This document shows positions 13,753 to 49,844 of a stretch of 64,000 nucleotides of DNA, one piece after another; the first letter of the stretch is position 1; each line of letters starts with the position of its first letter. A program made the position numbers and the translations under genes. The DNA is from Patescibacteria group bacterium (GTDB lineage Bacteria; Patescibacteriota; UBA1384; CAJBMM01): NCBI GenBank assembly GCA_041660565.1, contig JBAZWC010000001.1, forward strand, positions 6,155 through 70,154. The letters are read 5' to 3'. The notes below the pieces were generated by a model that was not told the DNA's origin, ran no database searches, and saw only the letters and a list, made by a program, of their open reading frames with translations.

Positions 13753-13771
13753 ATCGTGCTAAATTAGAACT

Positions 13772-13996: not shown

Positions 13997-13997
13997 T

Positions 13998-14072: not shown

Positions 14073-14139
14073 TTAACTTTTCGACTGTCTGTCAAAACTT
14101 ATTTTAACATAAAATTTAACTAATTACTACGTCAATCGC

Positions 14140-14454: not shown

Positions 14455-14460
14455 TATAAT

Positions 14461-14560
14461 CCTTGTAGGGGTGGGTCTCGACCCGCCCACGGGCGGACAT
14501 CCTCCTTCGCCAAGGCTACGGAACGACAAGTATGAGTCCGCCCCTACATTGCTCGGAGAA
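14461..14560. repeat. nested short palindromic repeats
   Basis: GTAGGGG...GGGCGGAC[cctccttcgccaaggctacgg...]GAGTCCGCCCCTAC. The same outer palindrome, without the insert, occurs at 58600-58640. Confidence 0.5.
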
Positions 14561-14612
14561 TATGATAGTGAAAAAGGAAGGCCCGCCTGCGAACGTCGCA
14601 GGCGGGGTCGAG

Positions 14613-14840
14613 CTACTGTGGGATCTCCTCTAGGGGAGAGGGGGTTCCTGCATGGAAGCAATCGGGCTGGTCGGCGTGATAGTGTCCGGTGAAACCAAGC
14701 GCGGAGCCCCATGCGAACTGAACGATTGGGGAGAAGTATCTGCCCCTTGGTTGTCTCGGGCTGTCATCTACCCGATCTAGTTGTGGAGGGGGCGATCCCT
14801 CCGGAATTGTGAGGACTAACTCCTGCCCATCAGGCATCAT
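14613..14840 (-). CDS. hypothetical small protein (high-GC cassette C), doubtful
   Basis: 75-aa ORF with SD ggagg upstream. High GC makes a spurious ORF quite possible. Confidence 0.25.
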   Translation of the reverse strand: MMPDGQELVLTIPEGSPPPQLDRVDDSPRQPRGRYFSPIVQFAWGSALGFTGHYHADQPDCFHAGTPSPLEEIPQ

Positions 14841-14964
14841 AAGTTCCTCCGAAAATGGCTTAGCATCTTGGCCTTAATTTAATCATATTCTTATGTGTCC
14901 AGGCGGCGCAACTTGTACAAATCCAGCGGCCTGTGTCATAATTAAGAGTGAGAAATGAGGGGAA

Positions 14965-15717
14965 ATGCCACAAGCACAAAATTTACATCGTCGTACAACA
15001 CATCCAAAAGCAGACGATAATGTTTCGCCAAAAGTCAATCGGAAAAATAGCAAAAAAGCCGAAGCTGAAAAAGTGGATTTACATGTTTTGCCTGTGGAAA
15101 AACATGAATCTTTTCACGAGTTTTATCCGTTAAACGTAACCAAAGTTGAGACTGAAAAAACCGGTGGGTACATTGGTTTGATTATTGGGTTGGTAATTCT
15201 GGCGCTGGTGGGTGGGCTGACGTTTTGGTACGTAAAAGAGCAGAACAATGCCACCAGTTCATCATCAACGCCAGCAAGCTCGGATCAAACCGGCGCCTCG
15301 ACGAAATATCAAAACTCTACGTATGGATTTAATCTAACCCTTCCTAGTACATGGAAAACGGTTAAATACTCGGACGGCACGGTTTGCACTGCTACAAATT
15401 GTCCGGTGGCAGATATAATTTTTGTGATGCCTGTTGGGGGCGCATCGGACAGCATTGCGCTGTTAGCTCTTGACGTGTATTCAATCGCAAATTACACTGC
15501 CTTGGTTAGTGCCGCAACAATAAGTGGTGGGGTCGCGCCTGTGTTGGTAGGGCAGACTGACCAGTACGCGGTGGTAGTAAATTCGCAAGCAACTCGTGAA
15601 TCTGGTACGACCGAGTTGGTTGGGATGGCGATTGATGCAATTCCAACGGTATTAAACTCATTTATAGCCACAACGCCGGTTGTAACCCCAACTCCGACCG
15701 CGACAGCCACACCTTAA
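14965..15717 (+). CDS. hypothetical membrane-anchored secreted protein
   Basis: One TM segment after about 65 aa, a Thr/Ser-rich region, and a TPTPTATATP tail. Confidence 0.5.
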   Translation: MPQAQNLHRRTTHPKADDNVSPKVNRKNSKKAEAEKVDLHVLPVEKHESFHEFYPLNVTKVETEKTGGYIGLIIGLVILALVGGLTFWYVKEQNNATSSSSTPASSDQTGASTKYQNSTYGFNLTLPSTWKTVKYSDGTVCTATNCPVADIIFVMPVGGASDSIALLALDVYSIANYTALVSAATISGGVAPVLVGQTDQYAVVVNSQATRESGTTELVGMAIDAIPTVLNSFIATTPVVTPTPTATATP

Positions 15718-15803
15718 TCATGAAATAAAATAGATTTGACAAGCCCGCCTCTACACTGGTCGTGGCGTTTATTCTCCATTTGTGCTAAAATAATGTTAGA
15801 AAT

Positions 15804-15879
15804 GGGCCTGTAGCTCATCTGGTAGAGCGCAGCATTCGCATTGCTGAGGTAAGGAGTTCGAGTCTCCTCAGGTCCACCA
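15804..15879 (+). tRNA. tRNA-Ala (anticodon CGC)
   Basis: GGGCCTGTAGCTCATCTGGTAGAGCGCAGCATTCGCATTGCTGAGG...TTCGAGTCTCCTCAGGTCCACCA with G3:U70, encoded CCA, and loop TTCGCAT. Confidence 0.85.
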
Positions 15880-15902
15880 AATCAGAGGATGGGAGATGGA
15901 AT

Positions 15903-16232
15903 ATGGATGATGGAAACAGTGATTTTTATTGCGATTTTGTTTTAAATGACAAGATTAAGGTCAATATTATCAAAGAGACAGACATGGTACTGGCCTTCTT
16001 TCACACTAAACCATCTTGGGCTTTTCATGTAGTGATTGTGCCAAAAACTCATATATCAAATATTACTGAGCTAAAAGATCTGGCGATAATTGAAGAAATT
16101 TTTAAAATCGCACAAGAAATTATTAATAACAATAATCTCAAGGCTATAAATTATCGCATAATCACCAATGGTGGTGGTTTTCAGGACTCAAAACATTTGC
16201 ATTTTCATTTAGTGTCTGGGGATAAGTTGTGA
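15903..16232 (+). CDS. HIT family hydrolase
   Basis: Histidine triad HLHFHLV near the C-terminus. Confidence 0.75.
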   Translation: MDDGNSDFYCDFVLNDKIKVNIIKETDMVLAFFHTKPSWAFHVVIVPKTHISNITELKDLAIIEEIFKIAQEIINNNNLKAINYRIITNGGGFQDSKHLHFHLVSGDKL

Positions 16233-16302
16233 AAAAGCTATTGCATTGTTTTTTAAACCATATAGAATTAATATATAAGTAATAAATATTTAGGAGGGGT
16301 TT

Positions 16303-16554
16303 ATGGATGGAAAAGAACCATCTAGCCATTTGGGGCATGTGGCGTTCGTGATATTAGCGTTTGTTTTGGGCGGAATAGTCGGATATATGGTTGGCGCAGC
16401 ATACAATAGTATGTATACCAACGAAGATTCGTCATTCTTGTCATCTTGGGTTAAAAAGACCAATTCAACCGCATCACCAAGTGCGACAACATCTGCGTCG
16501 CCAAGTGCTACGGCAACCACAACTGCGTCACCTTCGGCTACTGCTACTCCGTAG
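16303..16554 (+). CDS. small membrane protein with an Ala/Ser/Thr-rich low-complexity tail
   Basis: One TM helix followed by ASPSATTSASPSATATTTASPSATATP. Confidence 0.4.
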   Translation: MDGKEPSSHLGHVAFVILAFVLGGIVGYMVGAAYNSMYTNEDSSFLSSWVKKTNSTASPSATTSASPSATATTTASPSATATP

Positions 16555-16565
16555 TTGTAAAATCG

Positions 16566-16595
16566 TTGACATTTCATATCAGTTTGTGATAAGAT
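16566..16595 (+). promoter_or_regulatory. candidate promoter in front of the long 23S leader
   Basis: TTGACA, an 18-nt spacer, then TAAGAT. About 700 nt of non-coding AT-rich leader lies before the 23S. Confidence 0.35.
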
Positions 16596-17808
16596 GATTT
16601 AAAGTTGTTTGATGTACAAATAACCGTGAGGTTAAAACGTTTTACTTAAACAATCAGTTTAATTTCGGGATGGAATTAAAGATGTGAGCAATATTGTTTT
16701 GCTTGTGTTTTTGAACGCTTCCCGATGGGAAGTTTTTTGTTTCACTAGCCAGTGATGAGTCTCGGTCTTGAAACCGGGTCCACAAATTGCACGGGGACTG
16801 ATGTCCTGGCGAGTAAGTTCTTTTACAACTGAAAGGTGCATTAACGTGTTAAGTAATTTCACGGTTAATGCATTAAATTATGTATAACTTCCTTATTGAT
16901 TATACATAATATGATTCTTCCGATAATACTTAAGCCGCAAGGCTGTAGCAATTCGAAACCCCGCGAGGTTTTGTTTGCGCGAGCAAATGAAAATGAGCAA
17001 CGAGGTGAGAGCCGAGTTGATCCAAAACCGACACGAGGTTTCCATAAAAAATAAAATTGTTAGGATGAAACTTACCAAAGCCTGGTAAGGATCAGTCATA
17101 ACGTGTCAAGTAACCAATAATGAAAACAGATGACTAGAAGCACTTGTGTTTCAAATCTGATGTTTAGTTAAAGGTTTTGTTAGATCCGTTAATTAGAAGC
17201 AGAGACTCGAGACTGTAGAGGATTTTTCCTCTTAGGTTTCTTGTTTCTGGTCTCTAGTTAGCAGTCATGTAAAAAGTGACGAAAGCGCATGTGGAGGATG
17301 CCTTGACTGAAGATGCTGATGAAGGACGCACGAGGCGGCGATATGCTCCGGGAAGGTGCCAACGAACCAATGATCCGGAGATTTCCGAATGGGGTAACCC
17401 ATCCCGTTTTACGGGATACTCTCCTTTGAATATATAGAAGGAGTAGGAGGCAGCTCGGGAACTGAAACATCTTAGTACCGAGACGAAAAAAAAGTAATTA
17501 ACGATTCCGTGAGTAGTGGCGAGCGAAAGCGGATCAGCCTAAACCATCCGGAGGACTTAGAGCAGAATTATTTCTGTTTTATGTCTTCTGGATGGGGTTG
17601 CAGGGTGCGAACAGACCGTAAGGTCGAGTAGTTTGAAAAAATCAATTTATAGCAGAAGGTGCCTGGAAAGGCCCACCATAGAGGGTGATAGTCCCGTTAT
17701 GCGAAATATTTTGGTCTACTTGGTTTGCAAACCTAAGTACCACAGGGCACGAGAAACCCGGTGGGAATCTGGGACGGTCACGTCCTAAGGCTAAATACAT
17801 CTTCAGAT

Positions 17809-17848
<40 letters not shown>

Positions 17849-19207
17849 GCCGCATAGGCGAGTGAAATAGTACCTGAAACCACAATGCGTACAAGATGTC
17901 GGAGGGCTATGCCCCGTAAGGGGAATGCCTGACGGCGTGCCTTTTGTAGAATGAGCCAACGAGTTAGCTGTGTATGGCGAGGTTAAACTTTAAATTAGTG
18001 AAGCCGTAGTGAAAGCGAGGCCTAAATGGCCGACTAGTCGTACACACTAGACCCGAAACCAGGTGATCTATCCATGGTCAGGGTGAAGCCCCAGTAAAAA
18101 GGGGTGGAGGCCCGCACTCGGCAACGTTGTAAAGTTGCGGGATGAACTGTGGATAGCGCAAATATTGCAATCGAACCTGGAAATAGCTGGTTCTCCTCGA
18201 AATATATATAGGTATAGCCTACATTTAAAATACACAGAGGTAGAGCACTGGTAGGGCTACTCCGCCGTGAGGTGGGGAAACCCTGATAAACTCCGAATTC
18301 TGATGTATGTTCATGTAGAGTCAGACGGTGGGGGCTAAGCTTCATCGTCGAGAGGGAAACAACCCAGACCATTAGCTAAGGTCCCAAATTAATCGCTAAG
18401 TGGGGAAGGCAGTGATCGTCCCAAAACAACCAGGAAGTTGGCTCAGAAGCAGCCATCTTTTAAAGAGTGCGTAATAGCTCACTGGTCTAGTTAAGGATGG
18501 TTGCACCGAAAATGTAACGGGGCTCAAGCGATTAACCGAAGCTATGGACTTCAACGCAAGTTGGAGTGGTAGAGGAGCGTTCGTAACTGCTGTGAAGCCA
18601 TACCGTAAGGAGTGGTGGAGTGTTACGAAGTGAGAATGTTGGCATGAGTAACGAATTAGGCAGGCGAGAAACCTGCCCACCGCAAGAGCAAGGTTTCCTG
18701 GGCCACGATAATCGTCCCAGGGTTAGGCGGTCCTAAGTCGAGGCGCAAAGGCGTAGACGATGGACAGCTGGTTGATATTCCAGCCCTTGTTAAATTTTGA
18801 TTGGCGTGACGCCTCATAGGGGCTTAAATGATCGCATGGTTGAAAGTTTAAGTGAGTACGAGGACAAGAAAAGCGTCCAATCGCTAAGGTTTAACAATCC
18901 GTACCGCAAACCGACGCAGGTGCTCGAGTCGAGTAGACTCAGGTGATCGGAAGAACCCTCGTTAAGGAACTCGGCAAAATAGCGTCCGTAAGTTCGCAAT
19001 AAGGACTGTCCCGCGAAACTCGCAAGAGTGTAGAGGGATTACAACAAAAGAGATCAAGCGACTGTTTAGCAAAAACTTAGCTCCCTGCCAAAGCGAAAGC
19101 TGATGTATAGGGGGTGATGCCTGCCCAATGCCCGAAGGTCAAGAGGAGATTTAAGATTATATCAGGAATCGAATTTAAGCCCGGGTGAATGGCGGCCGTA
19201 ACTATAA

Positions 19208-19913
19208 ACCAAATTGTAGTTATAAAATTCGGCCAAATGCTGGAAAATCTGTCCTGAAAAAGGACTAGTATCCCGAACTAAAACCGTATAATATTAAATT
19301 ATGTACGATTTTGAAAATGTTACGGGTGCAGACAATCAGCAGGAAAGACTTGTCGTGAGTATTTCATCCGAAATTGGCTCGTTTCTCTCCGGTTTTGCCA
19401 TGGGAGAAGCCAGTTTCATGATCGTTTGTCGTTCAAGAAATGACTATAAAAGAAAATGGAAAGTGTCTGCAGCGTTTAATGTTTCTCAACACGATCGAGA
19501 GCCTCTCGATTTGTTTCATGAAACATTGGGTTGCGGAACGATTAGAAAAGCAGGAAATGATGGTTGGTATTTCGAAGTGAATAAATTATCAGATATCTGT
19601 AAAATAATTATTCCATTTTTTCTTAGGTTTCCTTTAGTGGGAATTAAGCAGAAAGATTTTGAATTATTCAAAGCTGCTGCTCAAATCCTGTCAAAGAGTG
19701 AAATTGACGATCAAGATTTTTCTAAAGTACTTTCACTGCGTGAGCAGATGAATAACGGAGGAAAAAGAAAATACTCAAAAACAAGAATCCTCAGAGACTA
19801 TACGCCGAACTCCCGCTTAGCGGGATGATGATATAGTCCGATCTTCATGGCGACATGAAGTATCAATCAGAAATGATTGGTCTTTCAAGAAATTGAATGT
19901 AACATAAATGAAC
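19208..19913 (+). mobile_element. group I intron 1 in the 23S (inserted after ...CGTAACTATAA, E. coli position about 1917)
   Basis: The exon sequence is interrupted exactly between ACTATAA and CGGTCC. It contains an ORF. Confidence 0.7.
19301..19828 (+). CDS. LAGLIDADG homing endonuclease (encoded in intron 1)
   Basis: LAGLIDADG-type motif LSGFAMGEASF; about 175 aa, typical for single-motif homing endonucleases. Confidence 0.75.
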   Translation: MYDFENVTGADNQQERLVVSISSEIGSFLSGFAMGEASFMIVCRSRNDYKRKWKVSAAFNVSQHDREPLDLFHETLGCGTIRKAGNDGWYFEVNKLSDICKIIIPFFLRFPLVGIKQKDFELFKAAAQILSKSEIDDQDFSKVLSLREQMNNGGKRKYSKTRILRDYTPNSRLAG

Positions 19914-19944
19914 GGTCCTATGGTAGCGAAATTCCTTGTCGGGT

Positions 19945-20630
19945 GAGAGGAAACAAGCCCGACGCAAAAAAGTTGGCTTATAACGGTGAAGCCCTATTGT
20001 AATTATGGTATATGTTCGGTTAGAATGAATGTATAAATGCAAGGGTAATACCGTGGGAAGTCTTAGTGACCCCGTAACGACTGAGAGCGTAAGCTCGAGA
20101 ATCCACGCAAGTGGGTTAACACGCCAGCCTTTAAAGGATGAAGAAATTAAATTTGCTTCATATCTCTCTGGGTATGTTGATGGAGAAGGATGTTTTTCCG
20201 TATCCCTCAACCCTAGAAAGAAAATGAATAATACTTGGGAAGTCAGACCGAGTTTTTCGGTCAGTCAGAATGCTGAACGTTCAGCCTTTTTATTCAAAAT
20301 GAAAGAATATTTTTCGTGTGGTACTATCCGGCCTGATCGGTCTGATAATACCTTGAAATATGAAATTCGATCATTAGATAAATTAATTGAACGAATAATC
20401 CCGCATTTTGAAAATTTTCCATTACGTTCCGAGAAGCAAAAATCATTTCTAATATTCACGCATATTTGTCAGATGTTGAAATCAAAAAAGCACTTAACTT
20501 CAGACGGAATTTCTGAAATTATTGCTTTAGCCCCGACAATCAACAATGGCAAGCGAAGATATTATCCATTAAAGAAGATATAGTCTGCGCCACTAGTAAT
20601 AGTGGATTGAACAAACGTTCAAAGAACGCG
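19945..20630 (+). mobile_element. group I intron 2 in the 23S (inserted after CCTTGTCGGGT, E. coli position about 1931)
   Basis: The exon resumes with AAGTTCCGACCCGCACGAATGG at 20631. Confidence 0.7.
20029..20583 (+). CDS. LAGLIDADG homing endonuclease (encoded in intron 2); start uncertain
   Basis: Motif YLSGYVDGEGCF. Confidence 0.75.
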   Translation: MYKCKGNTVGSLSDPVTTESVSSRIHASGLTRQPLKDEEIKFASYLSGYVDGEGCFSVSLNPRKKMNNTWEVRPSFSVSQNAERSAFLFKMKEYFSCGTIRPDRSDNTLKYEIRSLDKLIERIIPHFENFPLRSEKQKSFLIFTHICQMLKSKKHLTSDGISEIIALAPTINNGKRRYYPLKKI

Positions 20631-21103
20631 AAGTTCCGACCCGCACGAATGGCATAACGGTCTTGATCACTGTCTCAACGAGGGATCCGGTGAAATTACA
20701 ATCTCGGTAAAGATGCCGAGTACCCGCATCAAGACGGAAAGACCCCGTGGAGCTTTACTACATCCTGGCATTGATATACGGATATCTTCACGTAGCATAA
20801 GTGGGAGCCTTTGATAACATTCTCGCGGGAGTGTTTGAGGCGACAGTGAAATACCACCTCTAGCTATTTGTGTATCTAACCCCTCACCCTGAATCGGGTG
20901 GGAGAGACAGTGTTTGGTGGGTAGTTTAACTGGGGCGGTTTCCTCCCAAATGGTAACGGAGGAGTACAAAGGTCGGCTAGCTCCGGATGGAAATCGGAGT
21001 GATAGCGCAAAAGCATATGCCGGCTTAACTGTGAGACCTACAAGTCGAACAGATGGGAAACCAGGTTTTAGTGAACTGCTGCACTTGAGTGATTTAGGCA
21101 GCA

Positions 21104-21143
<40 letters not shown>

Positions 21144-21168
21144 GCATCCAAGAGATCACTTCGACGAT

Positions 21169-21206
<38 letters not shown>

Positions 21207-21242
21207 AGGTGAAGTCGCTTCCAAGGGTTTGGCTGTTCGCCA

Positions 21243-21294
<52 letters not shown>

Positions 21295-21643
21295 AATCTG
21301 ATGTGGGCGTGGAATTTTGAGTGGGGTTGCGCGTAGTACGAGAGGACCCGCGCGAACGAACCTCTGGTGTGCCAGTTGTTCTACCAAGGGCAGTGCTGGG
21401 TAGCTATGTTCGGTTATGGATAACCGCTGAAAGCATATAAGCGGGAAGCCGGCCACAAGATAAGAATTCATAGATCCCCTGTAGACCACAGGGTTGATAG
21501 ACGCTAGGTCGAAGCTCTGTAAGGAGTTAAGCCAAGGCGCACTAACGGATCATTTCATTTTTTATAACAACCCTCCTTCGCATAAAGCTACGGAGGGCAA
21601 GCGCTTGACACGTTATGACTGGTCTTTTAAAAAAAGTCCATTG

Positions 21644-21763
21644 TTCTGGTGCCTTTTGCCCCTAGGAAACACCCGTTCCCATCCCGAACACGGTCGTTCA
21701 GCTAGGGAGTCGCCAATGATACTTGCCTCGCAAGGGGCCGGGAAAGTAGGTCGGTGCCAGAAC
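21644..21763 (+). rRNA. rrf: 5S ribosomal RNA
   Basis: TTCTGGTGCC...CCCATCCCGAACACGG...GTAGGTCGGTGCCAGAA with complementary ends. Confidence 0.85.
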
Positions 21764-29286: not shown

Positions 29287-29367
29287 TCATTCCGGACTAG
29301 ATCCGGAGTCCAGGCAATAATAGATTTTTTATATAGATTCCGGGTCGAGCCCGGAATGACAAATTAA
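29287..29367. repeat. palindromic repeat, family 2 (TGTCATTCCGGA...TCCGGGAATGACA)
   Basis: cctgtcattccggactagatccgg...ttatatagattccgggtcgagcccggaatgacaa. Confidence 0.6.
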
Positions 29368-29377: not shown

Positions 29378-30241
29378 ATGCCAGAGCTACCAGAAGTTGA
29401 AACTTTAAAAAATGGGCTTAAAACCGTTCTCATTGGGCAGAAATTGGCATCGGTGCAAATTAACAAACCCAAAATGTGGCGTGGTTTATCCTCGGATCAA
29501 CTTGTAAATCAAACCATCCAGTCTATCGACCGGCTGGCTAAAATGCTGGTGATAAACTGGTCAAATAATTTAACCTTAATTGTGCACCTAAAAATGACCG
29601 GTCAGCTGATTTTTGTAGATAAAGCAGGTGAAGAAATTGCCGGCGGTCATCCTGATGATCAATTTGTAGCCAAGCAGCCGAGTAAATACACCCACATTAT
29701 TTTTGATTTTTTGAGTGGTGATCATCTGTATTTTAATGATATGCGTCAGTTTGGTTATGCGCATTTAATTGCGTCTGATCAATTGGAGCAGGAACATCAG
29801 CAAATTGCTAACATTGGGGTTGACCCGTTTGTGGCAGATTTTACGCCGGAATATTTATTTAAACATTTTCAGGATAAGCCAAAAACCTCGGTCAAACAGG
29901 TGATAATGGACCAGTCGGTTGTCGCCGGCATTGGCAACATCTATGCCGATGAAAGTTTGTTTGAAGCCAAAATTGCTCCAACACGACCAGCCAAGAGTAT
30001 TACCGAAGTTGAGTCAACGAAACTACACCAAGCGATTATCAATATACTCAAGCTTGGCATCAACTTGGGTGGCACATCGTACAAAGATTATGTGCATCAC
30101 GACGGTAAAAAAGGGACCATGCAAGATCATCTAAAAGTTTATCGCCGGGGTGGTTTGCCTTGCGTGGAATGTGGTGGAAAAATATCGCGTATTACCATTG
30201 GCGGCCGTGGTACTCACTTTTGCCCACACTGCCAAAAATAA
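29378..30241 (+). CDS. mutM: formamidopyrimidine-DNA glycosylase
   Basis: N-terminal MPELPEVE and the C-terminal zinc finger CVECGGKI...CPHCQ. Confidence 0.85.
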   Translation: MPELPEVETLKNGLKTVLIGQKLASVQINKPKMWRGLSSDQLVNQTIQSIDRLAKMLVINWSNNLTLIVHLKMTGQLIFVDKAGEEIAGGHPDDQFVAKQPSKYTHIIFDFLSGDHLYFNDMRQFGYAHLIASDQLEQEHQQIANIGVDPFVADFTPEYLFKHFQDKPKTSVKQVIMDQSVVAGIGNIYADESLFEAKIAPTRPAKSITEVESTKLHQAIINILKLGINLGGTSYKDYVHHDGKKGTMQDHLKVYRRGGLPCVECGGKISRITIGGRGTHFCPHCQK

Positions 30242-30337: not shown

Positions 30338-31261
30338 ATGAATAAAAAAACTTTACCGCGACACATCATTGGTGGGGTGGCGTTTACCTCTGGGCTGGTG
30401 CTTTACGCGCCAGACGTTGCGGTAATGGCGCTGCGTGAGCCATCGGGTCAAATTGCGGTTAAGTCTGTTGCGCTTGATCCGGTTCACTATCAAAACAAAC
30501 TAATAAAACTGTTTTTTGTGCGCGGGTTGTGGCTATTGTGGAACAGTATTAGTCTAAATGGCCGATTAAGGCGGATGGTAGATCAAACCGCCAGCGCCAT
30601 GATTGAGCCGGGCGACAAATCGACCGGGGCCAAACACAAGCCATCCGCTTCACTATTCCCGACTGTTGGTTTGGTGGCAGCGGTGTTGATTTACGGCGCG
30701 GTTTTATTTGCAATCGATTTGTGGAATGCGGTGTCTGCGGGCCAAAATGATGCCGTTCAGACCAACGGGGTGGCGCTGGGCTTGAGTTTACTGGCGGTGG
30801 CGTACATTTTATGGAAAGGTGATCTGTGGTCGTACTTGGGCTATCACGGTGCCGAACATCAAGCCATTACCGCCTACGAAAACGGCAAAATCGACATAAA
30901 GAACATTGGGCTTGCCTGGCCATATCAAAACCGCTGTGGTGCCGGGGTGGTGTCTTACGTGGCGATATTTTTGGTAGCGCTTGGGTTATTCGCGCCGGAA
31001 TTAACTTTTTGGCAAACGGTGGCGCTGGCTCTGGTCTTGTTTAGCTTGTCCTACGAGTTAGTGCACTTTTTAGATAAGTACAGCGCACATCTTTGGGCGC
31101 GGTTGTTACTGATTCCGGGAGTGCTGTTGCAGCTGTTGGTGGCAAAACATCCGCATGCCGACCAAAGCGAGGTAGCTTACGCCGCAATATCCGAACTGGT
31201 TAAAGAAAGTGCTGTGCTAAAATCGCAAAATCCTAAATTTGATGAAATGACACTAGACTAA
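30338..31261 (+). CDS. DUF1385 (YqhQ-like) membrane protein
   Basis: N-terminal IIGGVAF...ALREPSGQIAV and the conserved HGAEHQAI. TAGAAT sits 6 nt before the ATG. Confidence 0.6.
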   Translation: MNKKTLPRHIIGGVAFTSGLVLYAPDVAVMALREPSGQIAVKSVALDPVHYQNKLIKLFFVRGLWLLWNSISLNGRLRRMVDQTASAMIEPGDKSTGAKHKPSASLFPTVGLVAAVLIYGAVLFAIDLWNAVSAGQNDAVQTNGVALGLSLLAVAYILWKGDLWSYLGYHGAEHQAITAYENGKIDIKNIGLAWPYQNRCGAGVVSYVAIFLVALGLFAPELTFWQTVALALVLFSLSYELVHFLDKYSAHLWARLLLIPGVLLQLLVAKHPHADQSEVAYAAISELVKESAVLKSQNPKFDEMTLD

Positions 31262-31573
31262 ATTCGAAGCACTAAATCCGAAATCCGAAAAAAATTAAAA
31301 AAGCTCAAATTCAAATTTTTTAAAAAATAAAAAAATTGTAATTAACTTTTTGCCACCATTGACAAAATACTCTCGATTTTGATACTATACCAAAGTATGA
31401 TTAAACACATTCAACCAATTAATAAGTGCTTTACGCTCTATCGCTTAGAAGGGCACGGGCTTAATTTGTAAGATGACAATAAATCAGAATTAACAAATAA
31501 GAGCTCCTCTAAGGCCCAAACCACCTTGTAGGAGCTCTTTACAGTTTATTCTGGAAAGACCTTAACAACTCAC

Positions 31574-31647
31574 GCCTCGTTAGCTCAGATGGCAGAGCGG
31601 CCTGGTTAGCACCAGGACGGCCGGCGGTTCGAGTCCGCCCCGGGGCA
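31574..31647 (+). tRNA. tRNA-like gene with an aberrant anticodon arm (possible pseudo-tRNA / integration target)
   Basis: Canonical D-arm (TAGCTCAGATGGCAGAGC), T-arm (GGCGGTTCGAGTCCGCC) and a 6/7-bp acceptor. The anticodon region CCTGG-TTAGCA-CCAGG has only a 6-nt loop, so no anticodon can be assigned. No encoded CCA. Confidence 0.45.
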
Positions 31648-31695
31648 TGTATTCTACGGCAAGACGTCCACAACGCGCATCAAGGAGGACAGCAA

Positions 31696-31914
31696 GTGAG
31701 GCGAAAGCCAGTGGACCAACTGATGGTCCGAGATGTCTTGTCACCAGGCGAGGCATTGAAGATCATGCGTGATGCCGCCGAAGCGGCTAAGGGCAATGTC
31801 CTGCAACGTCAGGACGACGTCACGAAATCCGGACAGGCCCATGTAATGCGGGCCACTGCCGGAACGACTGTTACGCAGTACCGCAATGAGGAGGTCAAGC
31901 GCTGTGACAAGTGA
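31696..31914 (+). CDS. hypothetical small protein (high-GC cassette E, gene 1)
   Basis: GTG start after SD aaggagg; 72 aa. Confidence 0.35.
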   Translation: MRRKPVDQLMVRDVLSPGEALKIMRDAAEAAKGNVLQRQDDVTKSGQAHVMRATAGTTVTQYRNEEVKRCDK

Positions 31915-32032
31915 CTTGGAGGCAATTCGTGAAGCGGCTGGACTGCCAATTCCGATTGCAGATGCCACCAGTGGTTTCATCACCAACTCGGACACGACAC
32001 AAGGAAGTGGAAGGGCTGGTGGCAATGCCTAA
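31904..32032 (+). CDS. hypothetical 42-aa protein (cassette E, gene 2; frame chosen over the 134-aa track ORF)
   Basis: The frame-2 ORF VTSDLEAIREAAGLPIPIADATSG... is protein-like. The overlapping 31911-32315 frame gives an R/S/P-rich N-terminus typical of off-frame high-GC translation. Confidence 0.25.
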   Translation: MTSDLEAIREAAGLPIPIADATSGFITNSDTTQGSGRAGGNA

Positions 32033-32315
32033 GCAACGGACACACTCCACTGCAGCGGGGCGGCGCGTCACTGATGAAGATGCGCGTGATGGCGATATAA
32101 TGCAACTGGCCAAGGCTGTGGTTGATGGGGCACGAATAACTGAGTTCCAAGCTGCCAATGCATTGTGCCATCGTCTTCGGGTCGCCATTGATAGCGAGTC
32201 GCCCAAAAGCAGATCTCTCGTGACCCTTCGTCTGGCAATACGGACTCTCGAGGCACAATTCTCGACCATGGTTGGGTCTGTCACCTTGTCCAGTGCCGTA
32301 GTCCGGGCGCGGTAA
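32025..32315 (+). CDS. hypothetical protein (cassette E, gene 3)
   Basis: ATG at 32025 overlaps the gene 2 stop (ATGCCTAA); 96 aa. Confidence 0.3.
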   Translation: MPKQRTHSTAAGRRVTDEDARDGDIMQLAKAVVDGARITEFQAANALCHRLRVAIDSESPKSRSLVTLRLAIRTLEAQFSTMVGSVTLSSAVVRAR

Positions 32316-32553
32316 CAGGCGCAATACTCGCTCCATTGGGAGCAGACCGATAGTCCGGGCGGGAGAACATCCCCGCTCGGGCTTCTTTTTATCCATTAAT
32401 CGTAGGGGCGGTCTCATACCTGCCCCTCGTAGCCTTCTTGACCTTCCGAAGCTTTAGCGCAGGAGGTGGCGTAGTGGGGTGTCCGCCCGTTTAATTATAT
32501 AGATTCCGGGTCAAGCCCGGAATGACAAGTGAATAATGTGCTAAAGTAATCTT

Positions 32554-33261
32554 ATGAGAAACGTTACCACGCTTGGAATAGTGTTAAAACGCACTAATTT
32601 AGACGAAACTGACAAGATCTTGACCATTTACAGTCAAGAACTGGGAAAAGTGTCGGCTATTGCCAAAGGTATTAAAAAAATCACCAGCCGTAAAGCCGGG
32701 CATTTAGAACCGGGTAACGTGGTGCAATTTGAACTAGCCAAAGGTAAAACATTTTACATTATTACAAACGCCAAAATTACCCATTCTTTTGCTTATGCTG
32801 ATTTGGATAAAATGAAAAAATTATTTTTGTGGTGCGAGATTCTGGATAAATTAGCACACGATAGTGAAAAAAACACCGATTTGTTTGATCTGGCTGTTAG
32901 GGGGTTAAGTCATATTGCCGCTGAAAACGATCTAATTAAAGCCGAATTAGAGTTATATAGTACTACTGGTTACCAATTAGAAATTCGCCAATGTATTTTA
33001 GGACAAGAAGTCCTAAAACAAGATCAAAATTACTTTAGCATTACCGGTGGCGGGGTGGTTTGCGCAGATCACATGGCCAAATATCCCGATTGCGTCCCCA
33101 TCTCCGTTGAGGCGATTAAATTTTTGCGGTTAATTCAAAATCGAGATTACGAAACGCTGGCTCGAGTAAAAGTTGGCGTCGAAATTGGGGAAGAACTTGA
33201 AAGAATTGCCATATTACAGCGCCACCATGTCATTGAGCGGAAAATAAATTCTGAAGGATAG
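32554..33261 (+). CDS. recO: DNA repair protein RecO
   Basis: N-terminal OB-fold pattern GIVLKRTNLDETDKILTIYSQELGK and a C-terminal Cys-containing region. Confidence 0.7.
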   Translation: MRNVTTLGIVLKRTNLDETDKILTIYSQELGKVSAIAKGIKKITSRKAGHLEPGNVVQFELAKGKTFYIITNAKITHSFAYADLDKMKKLFLWCEILDKLAHDSEKNTDLFDLAVRGLSHIAAENDLIKAELELYSTTGYQLEIRQCILGQEVLKQDQNYFSITGGGVVCADHMAKYPDCVPISVEAIKFLRLIQNRDYETLARVKVGVEIGEELERIAILQRHHVIERKINSEG

Positions 33262-33450: not shown

Positions 33451-34554
33451 ATGCATAACGACGTTTGGGCTGAGGTCAATTTAGAAAATATCAAATATAA
33501 TTTTAATGTACTAAAAAAATCGTTAATGCCGGAAACCGGAATAATCGCCGTAGTTAAATCTAATGCCTATGGGCACGGTCTAGTTGAAACATCGCGTGCA
33601 CTATCAGATGTTGGTGCGGATATGTTGGCAGTAACCAGTATTAAAGAAGCGCTAGATTTGCGCCAGAATAACATTACCACCGCCATCATCAACCTCTCAT
33701 ACACCGCCCCCGAAGACGTAGAGCAATGTATCACCAAAAAAATCACCGCCACCATTTATGATGCCGGGCAAGCGGAAAAGTGTAATCAAATTGCGTCCGA
33801 TTTAAGAAAGCCGCTTCGGGTGCACCTGAAAATAGACACGGGGATGTCGCGATTGGGGATTTTGGCAGAAGAGGTTGAGGCTTTAGTGCCCAAAATTATG
33901 CGTTATCCGTATTTGCGAGTAGATGGGTTGTATTCGCATTTTGCCGACGAAACCGATGCGCAGATGGTACAAAATCAATACCAGAATATGCAGATGGCAT
34001 TGTTTTCGTTGCAAAAACAAGGGTTGGTAGTGCCGGCGGTACACATGGCCAAGTCTGGTGTTGTGTTTAAATCGAATCAGTATCACTTTGACGCGGTGCG
34101 TGCGGGGATGGCGCTTTACGGATATGAAGACTATGGCAAAAATTTGCGCCCCAGCATGACTCTTAAAACAGTGCTCGCGCAGGTAAAGAAAATCAAAGCT
34201 GGTGCCAGTGTTGGGTATATGCAGACGTTTACCACGTCCAAAGACCTCTTAATTGGCGTTTTGCCAATTGGTTACGCGCATGGGATTGACCGCGGGTTAT
34301 CAAATGTTGGCCATGTTTTGGTGGATGGTTGGAAATGTCCGATCATTGGGCGGGTATGTATGGCGCAAACGATTGTAGATTTGTCGCCGGTGCTAATGAC
34401 ATCTAGAATAAAAATGGGTGATGAAGTGGTGGTGCTGGGTAAACAGGGCAAGCAAGAAATCACCGCGCGCCAGATTGCGGATTGGCTTGGTACTAACACC
34501 TACGAGGTAGTCACCCGCATTCCCGAATCCGTCCCCAGGATTTATATGAATTGA
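33451..34554 (+). CDS. alr: alanine racemase
   Basis: PLP-binding signature AVVKSNAYGHG. Confidence 0.85.
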   Translation: MHNDVWAEVNLENIKYNFNVLKKSLMPETGIIAVVKSNAYGHGLVETSRALSDVGADMLAVTSIKEALDLRQNNITTAIINLSYTAPEDVEQCITKKITATIYDAGQAEKCNQIASDLRKPLRVHLKIDTGMSRLGILAEEVEALVPKIMRYPYLRVDGLYSHFADETDAQMVQNQYQNMQMALFSLQKQGLVVPAVHMAKSGVVFKSNQYHFDAVRAGMALYGYEDYGKNLRPSMTLKTVLAQVKKIKAGASVGYMQTFTTSKDLLIGVLPIGYAHGIDRGLSNVGHVLVDGWKCPIIGRVCMAQTIVDLSPVLMTSRIKMGDEVVVLGKQGKQEITARQIADWLGTNTYEVVTRIPESVPRIYMN

Positions 34555-34667: not shown

Positions 34668-35294
34668 GTGAATCTATCACCAGAAGAAATTAAGACAATC
34701 AAAACGTATGATGACCATTATGATGCCATTTATCAACAGCGTAATACTGATGGATATTGGAAAGCAGAAGCGGACGAACTAAAAAAACATCTGCCGAGTG
34801 GCAAAATCATTGAATTTGGTTGCGGTGGTGGGCGTGACGTTCGAATGTTATTAGATTTGGGATACGAATATATTGGCACCGATATCTCCAAGGTAGCGGT
34901 GGAAAAATGCAAAGCAAAATTTCCAAATCAAGAATTTATAAGCACAGATTTATACTCGCTTCCATTTGAAGATGGTAGCTTTGACGGATTCTGGACCATG
35001 GTAACATTGATGCACATCTATCCACGGCAAAAAATTAATCTGGCGTTGGCCGAAATAAAACGCGTTCTTCATCCTGAAGCATATGGTTGTTTATCAATTA
35101 AAAACGGAGAAGGTGAGACATTGCATCCGGATGTTTTGAAGCAAGGCGGTGAAAGGCCACGAATGTTTACGCTATGGACCGAAAAACAATTCGCAGACGT
35201 TTTAGCTAAAAACGGGTTTGAAGTGCTAAAATCATATGGAAAAACAGCAAATTCGTGGTCAGATTGGTTAGTTTATTTTGTCAAAGTGAGATAA
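34668..35294 (+). CDS. class I SAM-dependent methyltransferase
   Basis: Motif I IIEFGCGGGRD followed by an acidic loop DIS. Confidence 0.7.
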   Translation: MNLSPEEIKTIKTYDDHYDAIYQQRNTDGYWKAEADELKKHLPSGKIIEFGCGGGRDVRMLLDLGYEYIGTDISKVAVEKCKAKFPNQEFISTDLYSLPFEDGSFDGFWTMVTLMHIYPRQKINLALAEIKRVLHPEAYGCLSIKNGEGETLHPDVLKQGGERPRMFTLWTEKQFADVLAKNGFEVLKSYGKTANSWSDWLVYFVKVR

Positions 35295-35306
35295 TTTGGA
35301 GGAAAT

Positions 35307-35612
35307 ATGCAAACATATAACAAATTGGTGCGGGATAGAATTCCCGAGATCATCAAATCCAAAGGTGGGGAGTTTAAGACACGTATTTTGTCTGATGACG
35401 AATACAAAGTTGAACTAGACAAAAAATTATCCGAAGAAATAAAAGAATATCAAGCAGATCAAAATATGGATGAATTAGCTGATCTGCTAGAAATAATCTA
35501 TGCCATTGCCGAAAATAATGGGGTAAGTAAGGAAGAGCTCGAAAAAATCCGCGTAGATAAGGCGGCCAAACGAGGTGGATTCAAAGACAAAATCTTTCTC
35601 ATCGAATCGTAA
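35307..35612 (+). CDS. MazG-like house-cleaning NTP pyrophosphohydrolase (small all-alpha)
   Basis: KLVRDRIPEII...EELADLLEIIYAIA...RGGF pattern. Confidence 0.6.
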   Translation: MQTYNKLVRDRIPEIIKSKGGEFKTRILSDDEYKVELDKKLSEEIKEYQADQNMDELADLLEIIYAIAENNGVSKEELEKIRVDKAAKRGGFKDKIFLIES

Positions 35613-35704
35613 GGGATCAAGTCAAATACTACGACCTGTGTAGGGGCGATTCTCGTTGGCCGTCGGACATCCGATGCGTCAGATAGGACATCGCCCATTT
35701 ATGG

Positions 35705-35733
35705 TTGACTACATGTACTGTAAAGCGTATATT
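35705..35733 (+). promoter_or_regulatory. sigma70-like promoter of cassette D gene 1
   Basis: TTGACT, a 17-nt spacer, then TATATT. The same architecture and leader recur at 36581-36609. Confidence 0.5.
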
Positions 35734-35788
35734 TGTGTTGCCTGCAAAACTGCGCAGAGTACCGATACAGAACGGTGGTGAGACAAAC

Positions 35789-36481
35789 GTGGTAGATTTG
35801 GACGGATTTCCGGCCAGCATCGCCAATGGTGAGATTCGGGTAGAGGTGTACGATAACCTGAAGTACCCTGAGTTCGGTCGGTTGTACACCGAGCGCGTTG
35901 TTACTATCCCCTCTGACGATCTGCACGCATGGTCTTTGCTGGCTGATGGTGCCCAACTGTTGGTGACTTACCGTCATCTGTATCCCACTGGTGGAGGCGT
36001 GGCCAGCACTGAGGTTGGAGAGTACCGGGTTCCCGAGGGCACGAAGGAGGTATTCGTGTCGTACGCCTTTGGGATGGATGACTTGATACCGTTCCATGGG
36101 TCTGGCGATGACAGAGCATCTGAGCTACATGCTTCGAAGCAGGGCGTGTTCCCTTTCCGGCAAGGTTTGGGGCGTGCCCACAACTTGTACCACCAGCCTC
36201 TTGGGCTCGACTGGGGCCAACTGTGTAAGGCAGCAGATGTGTTGGCTATTCATGGTCGGTTAGTCGGGCGAAAGGGCATCCCTGCTGACTTGTCCGAAGG
36301 TAAAGTGCTTAAGAGCGGATGGGCAGCCGGCGAAGGTGGTGCCGAGGTGTATCGTGGTTACCACGATGTCGTAAGCGGTCGCCTGGTCTATCCCAACAAC
36401 CTACCAGGCCGATCCCCGTATCTGGTCCTCAAGTTTGACCAGCCGCACATCATCTGGTGCCCGGAGATCAACTGGAAGTAG
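35789..36481 (+). CDS. hypothetical protein, high-GC cassette D paralog 1
   Basis: GTG after SD ggtggtgag. About 230 aa and paralogous to the next gene (LLVTYRHLYPTGGGVA / LLVTYDRPVGVGAA; PLGLDWGQL / PLYLGWKEF). Confidence 0.45.
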   Translation: MVDLDGFPASIANGEIRVEVYDNLKYPEFGRLYTERVVTIPSDDLHAWSLLADGAQLLVTYRHLYPTGGGVASTEVGEYRVPEGTKEVFVSYAFGMDDLIPFHGSGDDRASELHASKQGVFPFRQGLGRAHNLYHQPLGLDWGQLCKAADVLAIHGRLVGRKGIPADLSEGKVLKSGWAAGEGGAEVYRGYHDVVSGRLVYPNNLPGRSPYLVLKFDQPHIIWCPEINWK

Positions 36482-36580
36482 CGCCGAGTCTTGTCGTGTG
36501 GGCTGTGCCAACTGGCGCAGCCCACGTTTCTTTCGTAGACCACGCTTTAGCGTAGGAGGTAGCTAAGGAGGGCGCCCGCC

Positions 36581-36609
36581 CGCTTGAGATTGACTAGATG
36601 TACCGAAAA
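36581..36609 (+). promoter_or_regulatory. sigma70-like promoter of cassette D gene 2
   Basis: TTGACT, a 17-nt spacer, then TATTTT, followed by a leader gtgttgcctgcaaaactgcgcagagtacc identical to that of gene 1. Confidence 0.5.
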
Positions 36610-36662
36610 GCGTATTTTGGTGTTGCCTGCAAAACTGCGCAGAGTACCTAAACAGAGAGAAG

Positions 36663-37328
36663 GTGAAAATCGTGGCAGTTTCACCTAAAAGACCAACCGA
36701 GGTTGGTCGGATCAGAGTGTTGTGGAAGGACAACCTGGAGTGGCCAAACATGGATGATCTTCTTGGGGCTAACGTGGTCTCTCTGCCTACCAATGAAGAC
36801 CGTTGGGCCATGCTTGGGGGCGAGGACAGGCAATTGTTGGTCACTTACGACCGCCCTGTGGGTGTTGGAGCGGCGAAAGTGGACATGAAGACCAGCTTCA
36901 TCGTTGGGGACGATGGTGGCATCCCGTTCTGTTTCTCGGCCACAGGGCAGGCAGATCAGCTGTTCGAGACGCAGCTAAGCGTTTTCGAAGTGCCGCGGCT
37001 AATGAGCCAGATTACGGAAGAGATGGATTTGGTGAGTAACCGGCGCCATGACGTCTATTACGCGCCACTCTATCTCGGGTGGAAGGAATTCCTTCGTGTA
37101 GTCGCTGCCCTGAACATCCTAGGAACCTCTTGTTTGCCAGACGCCAATCCAACCAATGTTCCTCGAGGTGAAGTTGTGCTTCGGAAGTGGGTGGCAGGCG
37201 ATAACACATTTGTGGTCAAGGGGAATGGAATCATGATTGCATCTGGGACCCTTCACCATCCTCAAGCTGGCCCATTGTCTCTTGGTGATCCTCACCTCGT
37301 TCAGGCGATCACATTCCCGACCCTCTAG
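36663..37328 (+). CDS. hypothetical protein, high-GC cassette D paralog 2
   Basis: GTG start (an alternative GTG lies at 36672); about 220 aa; paralog of 35789-36481. Confidence 0.45.
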   Translation: MKIVAVSPKRPTEVGRIRVLWKDNLEWPNMDDLLGANVVSLPTNEDRWAMLGGEDRQLLVTYDRPVGVGAAKVDMKTSFIVGDDGGIPFCFSATGQADQLFETQLSVFEVPRLMSQITEEMDLVSNRRHDVYYAPLYLGWKEFLRVVAALNILGTSCLPDANPTNVPRGEVVLRKWVAGDNTFVVKGNGIMIASGTLHHPQAGPLSLGDPHLVQAITFPTL

Positions 37329-37355
37329 CCCCAACAACAATATCGCCAACACTCA

Positions 37356-37391
37356 CGGGCAGGCCAACTGGTCTGCCCGTTTCAATATTTT
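37356..37391 (+). terminator. rho-independent terminator closing cassette D
   Basis: CGGGCAGGCCaactGGTCTGCCCG followed by tttcaatatttt. Confidence 0.55.
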
Positions 37392-37429
37392 GAATAGCCG
37401 AATGAGCAAAAGTTTGCTATAATTCGAAT

Positions 37430-49319: not shown

Positions 49320-49844
49320 TTAGGCATCCTCCTGTTGGCTGGCACGGAGCAGTACCTCTTCGTCAGGGCGATCAGATGGCCGCAGCAGCCTGGCGGTTTT
49401 GGCAGCCTCGTCCACGGCCAGTTTCCTCGCCAACTCAGCGAGCCTTCTTTCCTCCGCCTGCGCTTTTCGGATGACCTCGGCTTGTTCTACAACGGTAACC
49501 TCGTGGGCGATCTCCTGCTGTTGACGAGTGCCCCACTGTACGGCTGCCTGGCTGGGAGTAACAATCAGGTACTTCCAGAACGCTTTGGCAACCGCCCCGA
49601 TCGAGGGTGAATGTATCCAGCAACATATCAGGAGCAATGTCCACTCCCAAAGTGATCTGTGACTGTGATGCGTGACAAGATCGAATATCGTGACAAATCC
49701 GATGGCCATCCCGAATGCCCATATACCTACCGCGAAACCGCAAGTGCTCTCACCCACCCAATTTGGGACATACATAACGGCACGCCCAAATCGGCGAAGC
49801 TTTCGGCCAAGGTATCGGCCGATTGCTTTCAGCCAAATGTGCAT
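49320..49844 (-). CDS. hypothetical membrane protein (high-GC cassette F)
   Basis: ATG at 49842-49844 after SD aggagg and a TGGACA-17-TAAAAT promoter. Two TM helices then a charged helical tail. Confidence 0.4.
   Translation of the reverse strand: MHIWLKAIGRYLGRKLRRFGRAVMYVPNWVGESTCGFAVGIWAFGMAIGFVTIFDLVTHHSHRSLWEWTLLLICCWIHSPSIGAVAKAFWKYLIVTPSQAAVQWGTRQQQEIAHEVTVVEQAEVIRKAQAEERRLAELARKLAVDEAAKTARLLRPSDRPDEEVLLRASQQEDA

Follow-up and report, generated by a model that had tools for sequence, protein, structure and literature searches.

We analysed a 64,000-nt stretch of contig JBAZWC010000001.1 (hereafter the window; GC content 44.7%) from a deep-branching Patescibacteria (Candidate Phyla Radiation, CPR) metagenome-assembled genome (MAG), and in particular the 1292-nt spacer between its genes for a DUF1385 protein and for RecO. 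This spacer contains a leader, a 74-nt tRNA-like element at 31574-31647 and a GC-rich cassette of orphan genes. The reading which we favour, though tentatively, is that the element is a maintained, non-decoding tRNA-like RNA which probably derives from a resident tRNA, is co-transcribed with an acquired orphan operon under the control of a transcription attenuator and acts as a processing point for RNase P and RNase Z. Co-transcription, attenuation, processing, the non-decoding status of the element and its descent from a tRNA like that found at the same site in a relative (contig L012) are what we infer from sequence. A preliminary description of this stretch had reported an aberrant tRNA-like gene adjoining foreign DNA, and in this it was right: the element is aberrant and the DNA beside it is compositionally foreign and lineage-specific.

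The tRNA-like element

ARAGORN called the element on the forward strand as 'tRNA-??? anticodon (ag)' and drew it with normal D- and T-arms and, in the anticodon arm, a 6-nt UUAGCA loop on a CCUGG/CCAGG stem. It was thus recognised with its aberrant arm and not refolded to a normal 7-nt loop, as the preliminary description had anticipated in reporting a CCTGG/CCAGG stem with a 6-nt loop. The textbook D- and T-arms noted there are also borne out by the match to the Rfam tRNA model RF00005 (36.5 bits, gathering score 29, E = 5e−4 for the whole window), although the three ordinary tRNAs of the window score 64-76 bits against this model. Six of the seven acceptor-stem pairs are formed, and conserved tRNA nucleotides present in the element include U8, A14, G18, G19, A21, G53, T54, T55, C56, A58 and C61. 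Infernal could obtain a 7-nt loop only with an out-of-register stem in which 2 of the 5 pairs are broken, and neither ARAGORN, Infernal nor folding gave a 7-nt anticodon loop that has U33, three anticodon bases and a purine at position 37.

In canonical numbering the element is 1 nt longer than a standard 73-nt class-I tRNA, with an anticodon arm of 18 instead of 17 nt, and because the ends of the anticodon loop are G and C they pair with each other. The cloverleaf with a 6-nt loop has a folding energy of −31.9 kcal/mol, 1.7 kcal/mol from the minimum free energy (−33.6 kcal/mol). Opening the closing G-C pair gives an 8-nt loop at a cost of 3 kcal/mol, and the anticodon arm folded alone forms a 6-bp stem with a UAGC tetraloop. 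The earlier observation that CCA is not encoded also held: the element ends in ...GGGGCA and is followed by TGT, whereas all three ordinary tRNA genes of the window, for Ile, Ala(UGC) and Ala(CGC), encode CCA. With neither the loop of one nor an encoded CCA, the element is not a canonical tRNA, and its closed anticodon hairpin and missing CCA mean that it most likely does not decode. Every feature recognised by RNase P, RNase Z and elbow-binding proteins is kept, while a usable anticodon loop and CCA are absent.

An assembly indel at the element is unlikely, since the Logan assembly of SRR18595301 is 100% identical to the window across 3124 nt. ARAGORN found no tmRNA, and Rfam at E ≤ 10 over 31250-32560 returned the tRNA plus chance-level matches only, with no GOLLD, ROOL, HEARO or OLE RNA. 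A complementarity between the loop (UUAGCAC) and GTGCTAA just upstream of recO and in the 3′ end of the DUF1385 gene was considered and dropped, as chance alone should yield some 3-4 exact 9-nt repeats in 1.4 kb.

The leader upstream of the element

Upstream of the element lie a sigma-70-like promoter, a mini-ORF (ORF, open reading frame) proposed to encode a leader peptide and a long hairpin (Table 1). The preliminary description had placed a TTGACA-17-TACTAT promoter at about 31361-31389; the promoter is present, but its spacer is 18 nt and the site lies at 31359-31388. The 9-bp hairpin reported at about 31500-31538 was positioned exactly, but is only the core of a hairpin with 30-nt arms. 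The ATG of the mini-ORF is found 8 nt past the −10 hexamer, so its mRNA would be nearly leaderless.

The same module was found directly after the DUF1385 stop codon in the window and in the relatives' contigs L011, L012/L013, L014 and L019, and comprises a sigma-70-like promoter, an ATG 6-9 nt past the −10 hexamer, an AT-rich mini-ORF of 23-26 codons and a hairpin built on AGAGCTCC/GGAGCT(C)T. In the relatives the hairpin has a U-run on its 3′ side, and in L011 and L014 the next cassette is preceded by another copy of the module, which has diverged. The pattern AGCTCC...GGAGYT occurs in the 64-kb window only at the 31485-31553 hairpin (the palindrome being counted once per strand), and in L011, L014 and L019 only just after DUF1385. 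On this comparison, the window hairpin corresponds to the leader terminator of the relatives, and the idea that the upstream promoter and hairpin form a leader is strengthened by the presence of the same module at the orthologous site.

In 7/7 leaders the final 15-25 nt of the mini-ORF contain a complement to the 5′ arm of the hairpin, with duplex energies of −9 to −21 kcal/mol which beat 500 shuffles at p ≤ 0.03 in six of them. The distance from stop codon to arm is 21-30 nt throughout, and when the leaders were folded without the 3′ arm the alternative pairing formed outright in L011b, L012, L014a and L019. In the window itself, the proposed antiterminator duplex (31443-31455; −13.4 kcal/mol) was equalled by 1.8% of 500 shuffles (p = 0.018). 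The conserved leader, as compared across these genomes, has the layout of a leader-peptide transcription attenuator.

Promoter-like sites were found only at 31359-31388 and inside ORF1 of the cassette. As the promoter scan gave no such site between the hairpin and the tRNA-like element, transcription of 31574-32393 is most likely by read-through from 31359-31388. Of the two options offered earlier, a small RNA or a leader which co-transcribes the tRNA-like gene and the cassette, the comparative data support the latter as the better one.

It should also be noted that two of the relatives' leader-module promoters (L019 4826-4843 and L011 6416-6433) carry TGTGGATAA between the −35 and −10 hexamers. 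This is the reverse complement of the DnaA-box consensus TTATCCACA, and there is no copy of it in the window.

The orphan cassette

Against a value of 0.447 for the window, the GC content is low in the leader (0.36) and high in the tRNA-like element (0.70) and from 31648 to 32395 (0.57). Three ORFs with stop/start overlaps had been described in the cassette; the ORFs and the overlaps do exist, but ORF2 is probably spurious as a gene. The GTG at 31911, in the GTGA overlap, and the ATG at 32025 (ATGCCTAA) share one frame, and NCBI annotates ORF3 in a 96-aa version from the latter ('MAG: hypothetical protein WC773_00230 [Patescibacteria group bacterium]', on a contig of 516 kb). Position-specific GC content follows the ORF1 frame to about 31919 and then the 31911 frame, and never the ORF2 frame, which favours two coupled genes rather than three. 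The cassette is more likely to consist of two translationally coupled genes, encoding 72 and 134 aa, with a GTGA overlap.

We searched ORF1 and ORF3 against 5.8 billion clustered proteins and obtained only self matches. HMMER, run in full over 1.84 billion representatives with the 134-aa ORF as query, gave the ORF's own entry and one weak match to a repetitive protein (E = 8e−5), and none of the cassette ORFs had a match in Pfam, PADLOC or PHROGs. For the 134-aa ORF, AlphaFold with a single sequence predicted a helical hairpin at low confidence (predicted local distance difference test, pLDDT, 61.6), for which Foldseek found nothing in the PDB at E < 0.4, only generic helical hairpins. By the measure of these searches, the ORF1 and ORF3 proteins are true orphans.

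Two small, adjacent, coupled genes (72 and 134 aa, GTGA overlap) are the arrangement expected of a type II toxin-antitoxin pair. No homology or fold likeness to a toxin or antitoxin was found in Pfam, PADLOC, PHROGs and the protein searches, or by Foldseek with the low-confidence model. Our leading guess is that these small, coupled and variable genes form a toxin-antitoxin-like or other accessory module. The suggestion that their organisation is that of a phage or selfish module gained no support from Pfam, PHROGs, PADLOC or the phage DNA searches.

The spacer in related genomes

Contigs of relatives (L011-L014 and L016-L020) were found through DUF1385 homologues. The nearest of these homologues are only 40-47% identical to the window protein, so the lineage is poorly sampled; a DUF1385 protein scan of genome contigs revealed no close relative, and literature searches gave no description of this type of locus. 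The gene order Fpg-DUF1385-[spacer]-RecO-Alr is kept in distant relatives, with a hypervariable spacer: it is empty in L016-18 (43 nt), holds a tRNA-Leu(GAG) in L012/L013 (475 nt), two orphan cassettes in L011 (1455 nt), three cassettes in L014 (2255 nt) and two overlapping orphan genes in both L019 and L020, the latter without a leader. No tRNA or tRNA remnant was detectable in the spacers of L011, L014, L016, L019 and L020. In every case the leader-linked cassettes were GC-rich (0.51-0.575 vs a background of 0.41-0.46). Their ORFs had no family match in Pfam, PADLOC or PHROGs, and an all-against-all BLASTP of cassette ORFs found no common family, except for the paralogues F1/F2 elsewhere in the window. 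The DUF1385-recO spacer is, from this comparison, a hotspot for lineage-specific DNA.

Comparison with related genomes, which the preliminary description had proposed, showed that the orthologous site of L012/L013 holds a tRNA placed and oriented like the window element. Its loop has the normal 7 nt, and no ORF cassette accompanies it. This tRNA has a class-I body with a short variable arm, no CCA and an Rfam score of 56.8 bits; it is 72% identical to the window element, a value usual for many pairs of tRNAs.

The L012 tRNA gene (2562-2635, the same in L013) has a 4-bp T-stem and G73, in addition to lacking CCA, and the L012 leader peptide is Leu-rich, with 7 Leu in 23 codons, including CUU CUU and CUC. 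The gene does not encode a canonical bacterial tRNA-Leu and may represent a special-purpose tRNA under attenuation control. A possible homology between the tail following the window cassette and the terminator after the L012 tRNA was rejected as not significant (score 31 vs a shuffle mean of 26, standard deviation 5).

Tests for mobile elements

The preliminary description had considered a damaged tRNA beside foreign DNA to be consistent with an old integration event, tRNA genes being classic integration targets. No integrase, recombinase or transposase was found within about 10 kb of the element; the genes in this range encode pilin-like, NTP-transferase, DUF192, AP endonuclease, PadR, Fpg, DUF1385, RecO, Alr, methyltransferase, aminoacyl-tRNA synthetase (aaRS) and MraZ/W proteins. 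No direct repeat of the tRNA 3′ end was present at the distal boundary or elsewhere in the window (7-nt-seed repeat search; blastn with word size 7), including the region of 32400-32480 where a search for attachment (att)-like copies had been proposed. The only T-arm-like match, at 32405-32420, is inverted, 16 nt long and 81% identical, and is part of a dispersed repeat. The repeats at 32396-32530 lie outside the cassette and are not att sites.

There was no DNA match to the locus in 50,697 phage records. An anticodon-arm pattern had no copy in IMG/VR, and scans of viral contigs gave nothing relevant. In metagenome contigs the pattern GGNAGAGC-N7-TTAGCA-N14-GGTTCRA returned 7 loci, which were unrelated tRNAs, none of them a relative of the locus. 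The spacing of this pattern selects tRNAs with an 8-nt loop or a 6-nt variable region, so that the likeness of the tRNAs on contigs L004 and L007 to the element is partly built in. As regards integrons, there is no integrase nearby and the cassette 3′ ends are, by inspection and with no formal attC model run, plain GC-rich terminators. As neither an integrase within about 10 kb nor an att-like repeat was found, the locus is not counted among the tRNA-targeting integrative elements.

Several metagenomic tRNAs returned by these searches were also noted. L004 4046-4122, on a contig from a lake or sediment metagenome, is a tRNA with a clear 8-nt anticodon loop (CUUAGCAC; '(tagc)' in ARAGORN) beside a tRNA-Asn. 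Its 3′ part of about 55 nt recurs in L005 (6953-6994), L006 (1027-1068) and L010 (4720-4761), joined to unrelated 5′ sequence, as at the att site of an integrated element. In human-gut metagenome contigs, L007 998-1071 and L009 2836-2909 are class-I tRNAs of the 'tRNA-Leu(UAG)' type with C37 and a 6-nt variable region, located near a tRNA-Met. Their identity to the window element, 79%, is biased by the search pattern.

Interpretation and alternatives

In the mechanism which we propose, a ribosome at the stop codon of the mini-ORF would cover the antiterminator segment and allow the hairpin to form, while impaired translation would free the segment to compete with the hairpin and permit read-through. 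The element would descend from the class-I Leu-box (GAG) tRNA seen at the same site in L012/L013. The two-gene orphan operon directly on its 3′ side, with its own Shine-Dalgarno sequence and terminator, would depend for its expression on transcripts which start at the leader promoter and read through. The tRNA-like fold would serve mainly as an RNase P/RNase Z processing point, cleavage parting the leader from the orphan mRNA and setting the 5′ end of the latter. Unconstrained intergenic DNA should be unrecognisable where neighbouring proteins are less than 50% identical, so the clean cloverleaf points to selection or to recent arrival and not to old decay.

A number of points weigh against this reading. 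The U-run after the window hairpin is degenerate (CUCUUUACAGUUUAUUCU) and the hairpin was not called by the terminator scan, whereas the U-runs of the relatives are clear; the antiterminator pairing of the window is also among the weaker of the seven leaders, so attenuation is perhaps degenerate here. Descent from an L012-type tRNA is argued from position, orientation, the identity of about 72%, the lack of CCA in both and a Leu-box triplet (UAG vs GAG) in the loop, and the L012 tRNA lies 150 nt from the leader hairpin and maybe has its own promoter. RNase P/Z processing is deduced purely from shape. The exact element occurs in one genome only, so neither covariation nor conservation speaks for its fold, and with 70% GC it could equally have come with the cassette.

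This last possibility, in which the element and the orphan genes arrived together from a source richer in GC, for instance a Patescibacteria phage or plasmid not yet sampled, and the positional match to the L012 tRNA is a coincidence, we consider unlikely. Phages and plasmids often carry CCA-less tRNAs with altered anticodon loops, and the rise in GC content starts at the element itself, which unlike the host tRNAs lacks CCA. The most similar tRNA in a small panel was the class-I 'Leu(UAG)' tRNA of the gut contigs L007/L009, with the pattern-biased identity given above, and phage tRNAs with anticodon-loop changes are documented (PMC10264068). However, the searches of phage DNA, PHROGs and IMG/VR were all negative, and the same-orientation tRNA at the L012/L013 site makes a resident origin at least as likely.

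Site-specific integration of a mobile element into a resident tRNA, leaving a damaged attL-type remnant which is now a pseudogene, seems quite unlikely. The tRNA without a cassette at the same site in L012/L013, the empty site in L016-18 and the compositionally foreign cassette starting right at the 3′ end of the element would all fit such an event. The missing direct repeat (the one T-arm-like match being inverted) and the absence of an integrase or recombinase within about 10 kb speak against it, as does the location of the aberration in the anticodon arm and not in the 3′ half, where integrases usually cross over. The cassettes of L011, L014, L019 and L020 occupy the hotspot without any tRNA or remnant, and the fold is too intact for the old relic envisaged in the preliminary description, given identities of only 44-47% to the nearest relatives in the neighbouring protein.

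That the whole GC-rich stretch (the element and about 750 nt) is one large structured non-coding RNA, with the ORFs as chance products of high GC content, is very unlikely. Its folding energy over 31574-32395 (z = −3.8 vs 20 shuffles) includes the tRNA-like element and the terminator. ORFs do occur on both strands, gene callers differ on strand and starts, and protein homologues are absent; against this stand the lack of any Rfam family but tRNA even at E ≤ 10, the strong Shine-Dalgarno sequence at an ideal distance from ORF1 and the coding-like position-specific GC content, which switches frame exactly at the GTGA overlap. We regard as highly improbable a working decoder with an 8-nt loop (G-U-UAGC-A-C), reading a GCUA/G quadruplet or CUN codons and causing a +1 frameshift that fuses the ORFs, or regulated mistranslation. 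It would fit the length of 73+1 nt, in which the anticodon arm holds the additional base, the gapless alignment to the 8-nt-loop tRNA of L004 and the arrangement of ORF1, ORF2 and ORF3 in successive +1 frames, and yeast mitochondrial tRNAThr1 (PMC3113583) offers a precedent by analogy only. The G32-C38 pair, by contrast, favours a 6-nt or 4-nt loop by at least 3 kcal/mol, CCA is not encoded, the ORF1 frame has no GCUA/GCUG quadruplet within the ORF1/ORF2 overlap and the ORF2 frame has no coding signal. A frameshift fusion of the three ORFs was rejected on position-specific GC content and hand inspection, and CUN reassignment was rejected because CUN codons align with Leu as often as UUR codons (55% vs 57% in four housekeeping genes).

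A broader history of the locus, which we offer as distinctly unlikely, would make the ancestral locus a translation-sensing attenuator over a non-canonical class-I Leu-box tRNA (GAG in L012/L013). In the window lineage this tRNA would have become a closed regulatory or decoy RNA or a processing handle, and the stress-inducible leader would have been co-opted repeatedly for GC-rich orphan cassettes. If true, a tRNA gene would here be seen for the first time under the control of a leader-peptide attenuator.

Comparison with known systems

At this locus a tRNA-like RNA, an attenuator and a hotspot islet, each of a known kind, come in an unusual combination. Pseudo-tRNAs exist in bacteria, B. cereus tRNA-Other being an example, and bacterial Y RNAs have tRNA-like modules (PMC4201824). 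The element resembles pseudo-tRNAs and tRNA-like small RNAs in its intact D/T elbow and acceptor stem, its anticodon region unfit for decoding and its chromosomal location. It differs from pseudo-tRNAs and Y RNAs in being part of an orphan operon's 5′ untranslated region and placed behind an attenuator, in having no Ro60/Rsr context and in its perfect closed anticodon hairpin. tRNAs which punctuate transcripts or are co-transcribed with mRNA and cut out by RNase P/Z are known from the mitochondrial punctuation model and the E. coli tRNA-tufB operon. As in these, a tRNA-shaped element directly upstream of coding sequence would belong to one unit, and processing of its ends would set the mRNA 5′ end. 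The known cases involve functional decoder tRNAs, whereas the window element appears to be non-decoding and its processing is only predicted.

Among leader-peptide attenuators are the trp, leu and his leaders, and others, identified by Term-seq, precede antibiotic-resistance genes. The short ORF, the hairpin (with a clear terminator U-run in the relatives) and the alternative pairing with the 3′ end of the ORF are shared with these, with spacing kept across relatives. The window-type leader, however, would control a tRNA(-like) gene and/or interchangeable orphan cassettes and not a biosynthetic or resistance operon, its mini-ORF is almost leaderless, the U-run of the window copy is degenerate, and there is no evident regulatory codon run here, though DUF1385-adjacent leaders are Leu-rich. 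Tested against tRNA-targeting integrative elements, the locus shares the foreign-composition DNA immediately 3′ of a tRNA-type gene and the presence/absence polymorphism among relatives; unlike them it has no integrase and no duplicated tRNA 3′ end, the cassette is shorter than 1 kb and the hotspot is used without a tRNA.

Natural tRNAs with anticodon loops of other than 7 nt include the suf-type frameshift suppressors. Another is the yeast mitochondrial tRNAThr1, which has an 8-nt anticodon loop (UUUUAGGU), a UAG anticodon and a class-I body (PMC3113583). The window element is like them in its one extra anticodon-arm nucleotide, its class-I body and the Leu-box triplet UAG in the loop. It is unlike them in that the extra base lets the ends of the loop pair (G-C, then U-A) to leave a 6- or 4-nt loop, in lacking CCA and in showing no sign of CUN reassignment.

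If our favoured reading is true, a tRNA fold has been kept for a non-decoding job in an mRNA leader of a genome-reduced episymbiont lineage, and a conserved leader-peptide switch serves at one hotspot as a reusable expression socket for fast-turnover orphan genes. It would also mean that foreign DNA beside a tRNA need not indicate integrase-mediated insertion. If the element is instead a relic, the locus is an ordinary pseudo-tRNA beside an islet. The locus is also a small, testable system for accessory-gene gain and regulation in Patescibacteria, its parts being a single promoter, mini-ORF, hairpin and tRNA-like RNA together with two small proteins.

Features of the locus and other observations

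The features of the locus and its flanking genes are listed in Table 1.

Table 1 Features in and around the DUF1385-recO spacer (positions in the window).
Feature	Position	Strand	Evidence or remark
Fpg gene	29378-30241		Flanking gene
DUF1385 protein gene	30338-31261		Flanking gene, 5′ side of spacer
Sigma-70-like promoter: TTGACA 31359-31364, 18-nt spacer, TACTAT 31383-31388, TG upstream of −10	31359-31388	+	Promoter scan; same position in L011, L012, L014, L019
Mini-ORF, 24 codons (MIKHIQPINKCFTLYRLEGHGLNL), proposed leader peptide	31397-31471	+	ORF list; 23-26-codon counterparts in relatives
Proposed antiterminator segment in 3′ part of mini-ORF, complementary to hairpin 5′ arm	31443-31455	+	Duplex −13.4 kcal/mol
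Long hairpin, 30-nt arms, core 31500-31538 (AGAGCTCCT/AGGAGCTCT)	31485-31553	+	Repeat search and folding: −30 kcal/mol, z = −6.8
tRNA-like element, 74 nt, A73 discriminator, no CCA	31574-31647	+	ARAGORN, Rfam, Infernal, folding
Shine-Dalgarno sequence AAGGAGG, 7 nt before ORF1 GTG	31682-31688	+	Read from sequence
ORF1, 72 aa, orphan	31696-31914	+	Position-specific GC coding-like: 0.66/0.42/0.64
ORF2, 48 aa, probably not a gene	31886-32032	+	Frame without coding-type GC pattern
ORF3, 134 aa from GTG of GTGA overlap, orphan	31911-32315	+	Position-specific GC
Intrinsic terminator, 12-bp GC-rich stem then TCTTTTTATC, cassette 3′ end	32352-32393	+	Terminator scan and folding
Three short repeats, REP-like (repetitive extragenic palindromic), spread over intergenic regions of this genome	32396-32530		Window DNA comparison
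RecO gene	32554-33261		Flanking gene, 3′ side of spacer
Alanine racemase (Alr) gene	33451-34554		Flanking gene

Among the dispersed repeats, the palindrome ATTCCGGGTCAAGCCCGGAATGACA occurs at 8168-8192, 29337-29361, 32503-32527 and 58531-58555 (4 copies within 3 mismatches, 0 expected), with looser copies near 38853, 44371 and 57361. Copies are located directly upstream of fpg and recO, and the repeat could be a REP-like element or an operator of DNA-repair genes. Two further short repeat families lie beside the copy in the spacer, at 32402-32436 and 32451-32492.

Elsewhere the window holds another four orphan cassettes of high GC content (0.55-0.58) that have promoters and terminators of their own, at 8981-9921, 35705-37328, 49320-49967 (− strand) and 57555-58241; these had no Pfam match. 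A DNA comparison of the GC-rich islands of the window found no common cassette sequence, only short dispersed repeats. The genes at 35705-36481 and 36663-37328 are paralogues (27% identity, E = 7e−18), each behind a repeated promoter and 5′ untranslated region. Because Alr directly precedes a class II aaRS in the relatives, 34668-37400 is another window-specific insertion.

The rRNA operon of the window is split (10114-21762), with the 16S gene at 10114-11574 and the 23S gene starting at 17271, 5.7 kb apart. Between them lie opposite-strand genes for tRNA-Ile(GAU) and tRNA-Ala(UGC) and protein genes, including an MGMT-like one at 14140-14712. The 23S gene (17271-21565) spans 4295 nt compared to 2925 nt in the model, with about 1.4 kb of insertions. 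The ORFs at 19301-19828 and 20029-20583 inside these insertions encode LAGLIDADG homing endonucleases (Pfam E = 3e−19 and 2e−24), an arrangement typical of CPR rRNA introns.

In a phage tRNA array from IMG/VR (L002, about 5285-5392, − strand), a tRNA-like gene without an ARAGORN call has about 45 nt inserted behind its anticodon region and may be an intron-containing or disrupted phage tRNA.

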